A stretch of 64,000 nt of DNA, from the NCBI GenBank assembly GCA_000004695.1, contig CM000152.2, forward strand, positions 6,048,001 through 6,112,000, given 5' to 3'. Shown here one piece after another: positions 30,780-32,612 of the stretch (position 1 is its first letter; each line of letters opens with the position of its first letter). A program made the position numbers and the translations under genes. The DNA comes from Dictyostelium discoideum. Taxonomy: Eukaryota. The notes under the pieces were generated by a model, which was not told the DNA's origin, did no database searches, and saw nothing but the letters and a program-made list of their open reading frames with translations.

Positions 30780-30853
30780 GTTCGGATGGTGTAGTCGGTT
30801 ATCACGAATCCTTAACACGGATTAGGTCGTGGGTTCGATTCCCGCTCTGAATA
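30780..30853 (+). tRNA. tRNA-Val (anticodon AAC).
   Basis: GTTCGGA-TG-GTGT-AGTCGGTTA-TCAC-G-AATCC-TTAACAC-GGATT-AGGTC-GTGGG-TTCGATT-CCCGC-TCTGAAT-A. Closely resembles eukaryotic tRNA-Val(AAC) (..TAGTGTAGTGGTTATCACGTTCGCCTAACACGCGAAAGGTC..GGTTCGA..). Confidence 0.85.
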
Positions 30854-30959
30854 CAAACTAACATTTTTAAGTAACAAATTAAAAAACAAAGAAATAAACG
30901 AGAATTTATACATATAATAAATATCACAGGTAAAAAAAAAAAAATACATATAATAAATA

Positions 30960-32058
30960 AATCACTGTTATATCTTCACCGCCACATTCATTCCTCTTAA
31001 TTTTACCCTTTTTTTGCTCAATAAAGCAAGGGCTATCGTCCTATATACTAAACAATCACCAATGCAAATCAAAAGACTATATTGGCAAGAAATATTCAGA
31101 TCTACTTCTTACTTCGCACCAACAATCAATACAACTATTATGGAAATACACATACGACCAACTTTTTGTCAAAATTCAAAAATTAAAAGATCCAAAAGGC
31201 CGAGATACAATGCAAAGATTCCATGCTAGATGTCTTCCGATTAATCATCTACACAACAAAGTTTGCCCCATTTGCAACAATGAAATGAATAATGATCCCT
31301 ATGGTCATTTGTTTTTCAATTGTCAGCACACAATCAACTTCATTAACCACGACAAATTAAAATATTTTATATATAAAAATTGCAATGGAAACAAAAACTG
31401 GTCACTAACAAAAAACCATACAACAAAATTTTACACACTCATCTATAAACCACAAACAAACAACAAAGCATTTAAACCAGATCCAACTATCAATATTAAT
31501 TTTCATTTTGCAGAAAACGCACAATATAAAAAATACAGGTTCAACTGGAATTATATAAACACAAATCTTGATCTAGTCAGAACACATGCATATTGGAACA
31601 TAATCTCATTAGTTATTCACCAAATATGGATATGGTTATGCAAATCATTATTTGACATCAATATAACTCAATCAATTGATAATTGGAACAACCAAATAAA
31701 CAAAACAACACTAGATTATGATATATTAAAATCAAAATGGCACAAGCTAATAAGATTGGAATATTCAAGAACTTTATCAAACTTTAACCAATACTCAATT
31801 AAAAACAACCTCACAAAAACTCAAAAAGAAACCCAATGGTCCGAAACCATCAAAAAATTTAAAAAAGAATGGAGCATAAACACTAATGAACCAATTCCAA
31901 CAATTACACCACCAATTAATTATTAATTACCTAATCTAAAATAACATACCATTTTAAATTCACAAAAACTAAAAAACCTAAAATAAATAAATAAAAATAA
32001 CATACTAATTGTATACTACAATAGTTTATTTATATCAAAAAAAAAAAAAAAAAGTAAC
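30960..32058 (+). mobile_element. 5'-truncated non-LTR retrotransposon fragment (ORF2 C-terminal CCHC region plus 3' UTR ending in oligo(A)). It is TRE-family, probably TRE3-type given its position downstream of a tRNA gene.
   Basis: ORF 31210-31926 reads ..ARCLPINHLHNKVCPICNNEMNNDPYGHLFFNCQHT.., paralleling the TRE5-A ORF2 C-terminus (CQQCGEDETSEHIFFNCKAH). The upstream ORF piece at 31014-31229 (LYWQEIFRST..) is in another frame (a frameshift), which is typical of decayed copies. Confidence 0.55.
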
Positions 32059-32612
32059 AAATTTTGAGTCGTAGGTTCGACTCTCTTTTTGGTTGGAACT
32101 CAAATAAATCATTTTAAAAATTTAATAAAATTAGATATTAAAGATAATAAATTATTGTTGTTTATTTCCTTTAATGGATAAACATTGATTAATCAAAATT
32201 AAAAAAAAAAAATAAAGAAAAAAATTAAAAAAATTGTGGTTCAAATTTAGAACATTTCAAAGAAAAAGATTTCCATCTTCACAAGCATCATGCAGCAAAA
32301 AAGATCTAATTCTTTTAATTTTTTTAATTTTTTTTTTTATTTGAAGCATTTTAATTTGAAAGATTTTATTTATTTTGATTTTTAATCGAATTTTTTAAAA
32401 GATATTAATTGATTTTTTTTTTTTTTTTTTTTTATTTGCTTTTCAAATAATAATTTTATTTAAAGTCGGAGCAAATAAACAAAGCTTGGTTTTAAAATAT
32501 CTTGATTTTTTTTTTTTTTTTTTTTTTTTTTTATTTTTCGACCTAAAAAACCTATTTAATTTTTTTTATTTTTTTTTTATTTTTTTTTTTAAAAAATCAA
32601 AAAAATAAACAA

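Follow-up and report, generated by a model that had tools for sequence, protein, structure and literature searches.

Elements of the TRE3 subfamily are known to integrate 40-150 bp downstream of Dictyostelium tRNA genes, in the same orientation as the gene and at a position that relates to its internal or external B box; the distances published for TRE3-B range from 34 to 188 bp. Of the D. discoideum tRNA genes, 61% are accompanied by a TRE and 13% by a TRE5 together with a TRE3 element (PMC5006619), and tandem TRE arrangements are described in the literature as typical. The locus presented here lies in a 64,000-nt, AT-rich stretch of D. discoideum DNA of the AX4 lineage (contig CM000152.2, positions 6,048,001-6,112,000; hereafter the window), where a tRNA-Val(AAC) gene has a TRE5-A upstream and a TRE3-type element downstream and where, instead of a tandem, one TRE appears to be nested in another. 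Judged by its sequence, the downstream element is a copy of TRE3-B that is not truncated at its 5' end but internally deleted, with both termini kept. A preliminary description of this DNA had recognised that tRNA-Val is targeted from both sides, and both elements are indeed there; its picture of two families is incomplete, since a third has probably left a tiny nested insertion.

Anatomy and family of the downstream element

The TRE3-B insertion begins at 30881, 26 bp past tRNA-Val and on the same strand, and is enclosed by two copies of AAGTAACAAATT that are 100% identical and have no other occurrence in the window (Table 1). When the two 31-nt flanks were shuffled, an 11-mer in common appeared in only 50 of 20000 cases. 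The left duplication is followed by the 5' untranslated region (UTR) of TRE3-B. Window positions 30944-31049 share 99.1% identity (BLAST) with positions 9887-9992 of the comparison locus L002, inside the opening ~146 bp of a copy that is nearly full-length. The retained 5' UTR begins near reference position 15 and stops 9 nt short of the ATG of open reading frame 1 (ORF1; L002 10001). The second BLAST segment, 31045-32053, is 99% identical to the last 1009 bp of the same copy. Because the 5' UTR is present and the two segments overlap at ATACT, the loss is read as an internal deletion and not as a 5' truncation, GTCCTATATACTAAACAATCACC being the sequence of the junction. The missing interior comprises all of ORF1 and residues 1-980 of ORF2 (tblastn with the 1275-aa pol protein), which corresponds to 3.6 kb relative to the L002 copy and to about 4.1 kb relative to the full element of ~5.28 kb.

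The preliminary description had the element start at 30960, ~105 bp downstream of tRNA-Val, as a simple 5'-truncated fragment of TRE3 type, so that 30855-30959 would be ordinary flank. Recognisable ORF2 coding does start only after about 31045, and a distance of ~100 bp would suit the textbook figure for TRE3. However, 30881-31049 is TRE3-B 5' UTR that is 99% identical to L002 and is found again in the tandem copy of locus L001, the target-site duplication lies at 30869-80 and not near 30960, and the empty alleles described below are without any part of 30881-32051. A simple truncated fragment is extremely improbable in the light of these observations, and with its 5' UTR present and its loss internal the copy does not belong to the 5'-truncated ("dead on arrival") type. 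The ORF2 C-terminus with its CCHC motif and the oligo(A) end, on the other hand, had both been recognised correctly. The open frame downstream of tRNA-Val runs from 30961 to 31926, and the ORF at 31210-31926 (238 aa) ends in 213 residues that are identical to XP_640185.1 of the remnant gene annotated here, DDB_G0282659. A further copy of the fragment was not found within the window, which gave low-complexity matches only.

An internally deleted copy with both ends could also belong to a non-autonomous subfamily that is mobilised in trans, for which TRE5-A.2 provides a precedent; the 5' UTR (the presumed promoter), the 3' UTR and the tail, which are the parts needed for transcription and target-primed reverse transcription (TPRT), are all kept. 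Against this, 40 of 41 family proteins show the normal ORF2 context at the breakpoint, the junction peptide occurs in a single protein, encoded at this very locus in another assembly of the laboratory lineage, and the junction is present in none of the six other copies at the loci compared. Neither the 41 family proteins nor the 7 genomic copies include a second copy with this junction, and membership in such a subfamily is considered very unlikely. A rearrangement is also seen in ORF2 of the near-complete L002 copy (12498-12611): it lacks residues 484-616, and the tblastn alignments on either side share 114 bp, so that internal deletions appear to be frequent in the TRE3-B family.

As to the identity of the family, the translated fragment matches D. 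discoideum proteins only, with 89-99% identity, and against residues 981-1275 of AAD43057.1 ("pol") the amino acid identity reaches 98.6% over 295 aa. Members of the same cluster include AAC27746.1, which GenBank describes as "similar to HC domain of Tdd-3 and DRE", and DDB_G0291686, whose dictyBase product is "TRE3-B ORF2" (PMC12405889, Table 2) and which is 97% identical to the long ORF2 of the family over a stretch overlapping the window fragment. Pfam detects an APE-type endonuclease (Exo_endo_phos, residues 8-231) and a reverse transcriptase domain (RVT_1, residues 502-732) in the 1275-aa pol protein and gives no match for the window fragment alone. The family has the architecture of TRE3 non-long terminal repeat (non-LTR) elements, which in the window copy is reduced to the CCHC region, an A16 tail and the duplication of 12 bp.

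The length of the element points to the same family. Between its duplications the L002 copy measures 4760 bp and is without about 513 bp of ORF2, and the intact element is therefore expected to be about 5.28-5.30 kb long; the published lengths are 5279 bp for Dd_TRE3-B, 5229 bp for TRE3-A and 4734 bp for TRE3-C (PMC5006619, Table 1). TRE3-C had been suspected from the 4760 bp of the L002 copy and was ruled out by the ORF2 deletion in that copy, as well as by a coding sequence of 1209 + 3828 bp, which exceeds 4734 bp. The fragment has no match at E<1e-5 to the TRE5-A ORF2 of the same window; full-length ORF2 of the TRE3-B family is 25% identical to that of TRE5-A, and its identity to the other TRE families compared is 25-39% only. 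The earlier assignment to a TRE3-type element is borne out: the best match is to TRE3-B and not to a TRE5-family element, and sequence, position and orientation are all of the TRE3 type. On these comparisons the downstream element is identified as TRE3-B.

Table 1. Positions of the features at the tRNA-Val locus in the window
Feature	Position	Strand	Sequence or remark	Basis
tRNA-Val(AAC) gene	30780-30854	+	Rfam RF00005 at 30780-30853, 57.9 bits	ARAGORN; Rfam
Internal B box of tRNA-Val	30832-30842	+	GGTTCGATTCC	motif scan
T5 terminator run of tRNA-Val (RNA polymerase III)	30864-30868	+		sequence
Left target-site duplication of TRE3-B, 12 bp	30869-30880		AAGTAACAAATT; abuts the tRNA terminator T-run	repeat search
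First 43 nt of TRE3-B 5' UTR	30881-30923	+	aaaaaacaaagaaataaacgagaatttatacatataataaata	visual comparison with L002 9860-9902 and with the 5' terminus of the L001 tandem copy
Inner duplication, 15-16 bp	30908/9-30923 and 30944/5-30959		(A)TACATATAATAAATA	exact
Nested micro-insertion, 21 bp	30924-30944	+	TCACAGGT + A13; inside TRE3-B 5' UTR	
Remaining TRE3-B 5' UTR	30945-31049	+	with the right-hand inner duplication	
Internal-deletion junction	31045-31049	+	5-bp microhomology ATACT	overlap of two BLAST segments
TRE3-B ORF2 C-terminus	31045-31926	+	residues 981-1275 of the 1275-aa pol protein; stop codon 31924-31926	tblastn
CCHC motif CX2CX10HX4C	31264-31323	+	CPICNNEMNNDPYGHLFFNC; within the ORF2 C-terminus	
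TRE3-B 3' UTR	31927-32036	+		3' ends of five other copies match at 99%
A16 tail	32037-32052	+		sequence
Right target-site duplication of TRE3-B	32052-32063		AAGTAACAAATT; first A common with the A tail	
External B box motif of tRNA-Val	32074-32084	+	GGTTCGACTCT; GGTTCGACTC at 32074-32083	motif scan
TRE5-A, full-length, upstream of tRNA-Val	24656-30732	-	opposite orientation	ORFs, protein identity
Target-site duplication of TRE5-A, 13 bp	24643-24655 and 30733-30745		TTTTGAAAAAAAG	read from sequence

The external B box and the empty sites

Past the right duplication stands a B-box-like motif that had been noticed before as an orphan and tentatively taken for a displaced external B box (exB) belonging to tRNA-Val; its present distance from the gene is 1219 bp. 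Removing 30960-32058, as the preliminary description proposed, does not restore a typical spacing; once 30881-32063 is removed, the motif stands 36 bp past tRNA-Val, which is to say tens of bp downstream of the gene, as is expected of an exB. To assess the site in the uninserted state, loci were retrieved by homology search with the flanking NAGidase gene from other assemblies, two of wild D. discoideum (L006 and L007) and one of a sister species, "D. cf. discoideum" (L005). In all three the tRNA reads through ...CAAGTAACGAGGTTAGGATCGTAGGTTCAATTCTC... without TRE3-B, and the distance from tRNA-Val to the NAGidase gene is 493-536 bp, compared with 1759 bp in the window. The three loci align collinearly with the window after removal of the insertion together with one copy of the duplication (30881-32063), and they carry GGTTCAATTCT and GGTTCAAATCT 37 bp past tRNA-Val (L006, L007) and GGTTCGATTCT 23 bp past it (L005). 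As the target-site duplications define the insertion and the empty sites carry the motif 23-37 bp past tRNA-Val, it is directly confirmed at the level of sequence that this gene's exB has been displaced and now forms the "orphan" motif.

The motif could in principle be a chance look-alike of a B box or what is left of a decayed tRNA gene, and it is now 1.2 kb away from any tRNA gene. However, the pattern GGTTCGANNC occurs at 4 distinct sites in the 64 kb, where 0.12 would be expected by chance, and all four are associated with tRNA genes: two are the internal B boxes of tRNA-Ile and tRNA-Val, one lies 30 bp past tRNA-Ile, and the fourth is 32074-83. In addition, the motif is collinear with the B-box-like motifs past the orthologous tRNA-Val of the three empty-site genomes, the identical 16-mer cgtaGGTTCGACTCTc is found 33 bp past tRNA-Phe in L002, and neither ARAGORN nor Rfam detects a tRNA-like gene at the motif. 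A look-alike or remnant has almost no chance of being the right explanation. A role of the exB in TFIIIC binding, in transcription by RNA polymerase III (Pol III) or in TRE targeting is putative.

The TRE3-B insertion is polymorphic, because it is absent from L005, L006 and L007. A second assembly of the laboratory lineage (L004; GCA_054883475.1) is 99.75% identical to the window over 21 kb; it probably represents the laboratory strain AX2-214, which figures in a preprint on new Dictyostelium assemblies. The boundaries and orientation of the insertion, both duplications, the family match and the empty sites were all observed directly. In L007 (1657-9465) the locus has other occupants: a TRE5-type element (ORF1 469 aa, ORF2 1056 aa) is located upstream of tRNA-Ile, and tRNA-Val is bordered on its 5' side by unrelated sequence that contains a 369-aa gene model. 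The tRNA-Ile/tRNA-Val pair is therefore occupied very differently from one isolate to another.

The nested micro-insertion and family F1

Inside the TRE3-B 5' UTR, 70 bp past tRNA-Val, a micro-insertion made of TCACAGGT and A13 separates the two copies of the inner duplication. The inner 15-mer occurs at those two places only, and in the reference TRE3-B copy of L002 the duplicated sequence is present once, without the insert. The 8-mer leads to another family, which we call F1. Four F1 copies (L002, L003) have the 3' terminus GAAGGTCTGATCACAGGT(A)n and a fifth (L008) terminates in GTCTGATCACAGGT(A)n, so that all five independent copies end in TCACAGGT(A)n; the terminus of the family is GATCACAGGT(A)n. 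F1 encodes an ORF2 of the APE-RT type that is 35% identical to that of TRE3-B, and it has target-site duplications of its own. Three of the five copies are located directly downstream of tRNA genes (tRNA-Asp, tRNA-Thr and tRNA-Leu(TAA)), and a fourth stands in tandem behind a TRE3-B copy at tRNA-Leu(CAA). Extremely 5'-truncated insertions of long interspersed elements (LINEs) of the L1 type arise by abortive target-primed reverse transcription. The simplest reading of the micro-insertion is that it represents an extremely 5'-truncated copy of F1, which would be a second TRE3-type family at this gene.

A duplication of the AT-rich 5' UTR by slippage or repair, with TCACAGGT and A13 as filler and the F1 match arising by chance, is the alternative reading of the same structure. 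Only 8 nt are specific, chance alone would produce TCACAGGTAAAAA 0.37 times in the window, and the 8-mer TCACAGGT is also found inside TRE5-A (25103-25110), beside a T-run. Slippage is nevertheless rather unlikely: an exact repeat of 15-16 bp, the terminal 8 nt of a polyadenylated element and A13 together form a TPRT signature, five independent F1 copies terminate in precisely this 8-mer, and the site at 70 bp past the tRNA gene falls inside the published 40-150 bp window of TRE3. The B-module of TRE5-A (25103-25110) was also considered as the source of the 8-mer and was rejected, as on the same strand it is followed there by a T-run and not by an A-run. An aborted F1 insertion, the reading preferred here, is retained in what follows.

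Targeting pattern and history of the locus

Among the loci compared, each of the six primary TRE3-B copies is located 26-64 bp past a tRNA gene and on its strand, in line with the literature; the five other than the window copy are 32-64 bp away. The position and orientation of the window copy, downstream and in the same direction as the gene, are those of the TRE3 subfamily. In L001 (9591-12268) two TRE3-B copies stand in tandem behind tRNA-Val(TAC), first a 5'-truncated one and, directly past its poly(A), a second with its own 5' UTR, and this arrangement is the TRE-TRE tandem described in the literature. In L003 (9790-11640) tRNA-Leu(CAA) has TRE5-A modules upstream and, downstream, a 5'-truncated TRE3-B at 32 bp, followed by a 5'-truncated F1; this is a further case of three families at a single tRNA gene.

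The upstream element is TRE5-A, as had been claimed. Its ORF1 (444 aa, about 51 kDa) and ORF2 (1073 codons), its modular UTR, its opposite orientation and its upstream position of the ~48-bp type, with 47 bp between its 5' end and tRNA-Val, are those of the class, and over 1047 aa its ORF2 shares 99.5% identity with DDB_G0269056, TRE5-A ORF2 by its dictyBase product name. The 5' end is made up of 3.5 tandem units of 199 bp (94% matches, 30034-30732). The published structure of TRE5-A has a single A-module of 200 bp, to which the units correspond in length, and the additional units account for the length of this copy, 6077 bp compared with a consensus of 5647 bp. Another TRE5-A, at L003 (17052-17920), likewise has several 5' units. 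Two long T-runs inside the window copy, T48 (30012-30059) and about T56 (25112-25167), are both preceded by GGTTC(C/A)CAGGT, apparently at the edges of the two B-module copies. TRE5-A is absent from L006, where tRNA-Ile and tRNA-Val are 1240 bp apart, compared with 6556 bp in the window.

The neighbouring tRNA-Ile(AAT) gene (24152-24224) is followed about 30 bp later by the palindromic B-box-like GGGTTCGAACCC (24254-24265), which matches on both strands and is presumably the external B box of tRNA-Ile. Between tRNA-Ile and the TRE5-A tail, at 24434-24545, a perfect 13-bp inverted repeat, ATTTTTGGAGGTG ... CACCTCCAAAAAT, surrounds about 76 nt with a B-box-like GGTTCGAGTTT; folded as RNA it reaches -28.7 kcal/mol, its conservation in L006 and L007 is about 70-75%, and it has no Rfam and no tRNA match. 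Over 24000-32600 Rfam finds nothing beyond the two tRNAs.

Taken together, it is highly probable that the locus arose through a TRE3-B insertion with internal loss, a later nested F1 event and an independent TRE5-A insertion. TRE3-B would have integrated by TPRT in the orientation of the gene, between the tRNA-Val terminator and the exB, producing the 12-bp duplication and shifting the exB by about 1.18 kb. About 4.1 kb of its interior was lost across the microhomology, which may have happened either through template jumping of the reverse transcriptase during integration or through a later microhomology-mediated deletion, and the copy is a dead remnant. Later a second TRE3-type element would have targeted tRNA-Val 70 bp downstream, a position that by then belonged to the TRE3-B 5' UTR, and, being aborted, would have left no more than 8 nt, A13 and the duplication of 15-16 bp. 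The full-length TRE5-A would have integrated independently, 47 bp upstream and in the opposite orientation. We infer the order of these events and, from the literature on TRE3 targeting, TPRT and guidance by Pol III factors on B boxes.

Some points weigh against this account. The name TRE3-B depends on a dictyBase label taken from one paper, on the agreement in length and on a single GenBank note. The distance of 26 bp is below the published 34-188 bp, and so are the 32 bp of the L003 case. Only 8 nt link the micro-insertion to F1, and the naming of F1 lies between TRE3-A and TRE3-C, its intact-looking copy being 4561 bp long compared with the published 5229 and 4734 bp. The abundance of F1 and its many long ORFs suggest TRE3-A; its copy length is nearer to the published length of TRE3-C.

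A bolder proposal is that the locus records serial targeting by three TRE families under a distance rule, and that the deleted TRE3-B could be the founder or a member of a non-autonomous derivative. With TRE3-B unusually close to the gene (26 bp), the next event at the normal distance of ~70 bp would fall into the resident TRE3-B. As a whole this proposal is considered quite improbable.

The element type is known, its behaviour has been published, and the locus is already annotated as DDB_G0282659. Targeting of Dictyostelium tRNA genes by TRE3 and TRE5, exB boxes and double occupancy have all been described, and the value of our results is mainly a correct annotation. On the other hand, the insertion between tRNA and exB at 26 bp, a deletion that keeps the termini and the nesting of one TRE in another are mildly unusual, and with its exact duplications, natural empty-site alleles and nested abortive insertion the locus offers a clean worked example. 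It could help to study how TRE3 elements gauge their distance from B boxes, and it is suited to asking whether a 1.2-kb shift of the exB alters TFIIIC occupancy or the expression of tRNA-Val.

Finally, three described systems can be set beside this locus. With TRE3-B in general the window copy shares an ORF2 C-terminus of 98.6% identity, UTRs that are 99% identical, the poly(A) tail and the 12-bp duplication, as well as its place beside an exB box, downstream of a tRNA gene with which it shares the orientation; it differs in the internal loss of about 4.1 kb, in hosting a nested micro-insertion, and in its position 26 bp from the tRNA gene, between tRNA and exB instead of past the exB. With TRE5-A.2 it has in common the internal deletion of a TRE element that keeps both termini, but TRE5-A.2 is multi-copy and mobilised in trans, whereas the TRE3-B of the window looks like a single dead copy. 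The inner insertion resembles truncated insertions of the L1 type in having the last 8 nt of an element, a poly(A) and a target duplication of 15-16 bp, and differs from them in being unusually short and in having as its target the 5' UTR of a different TRE that itself sits at a tRNA gene.

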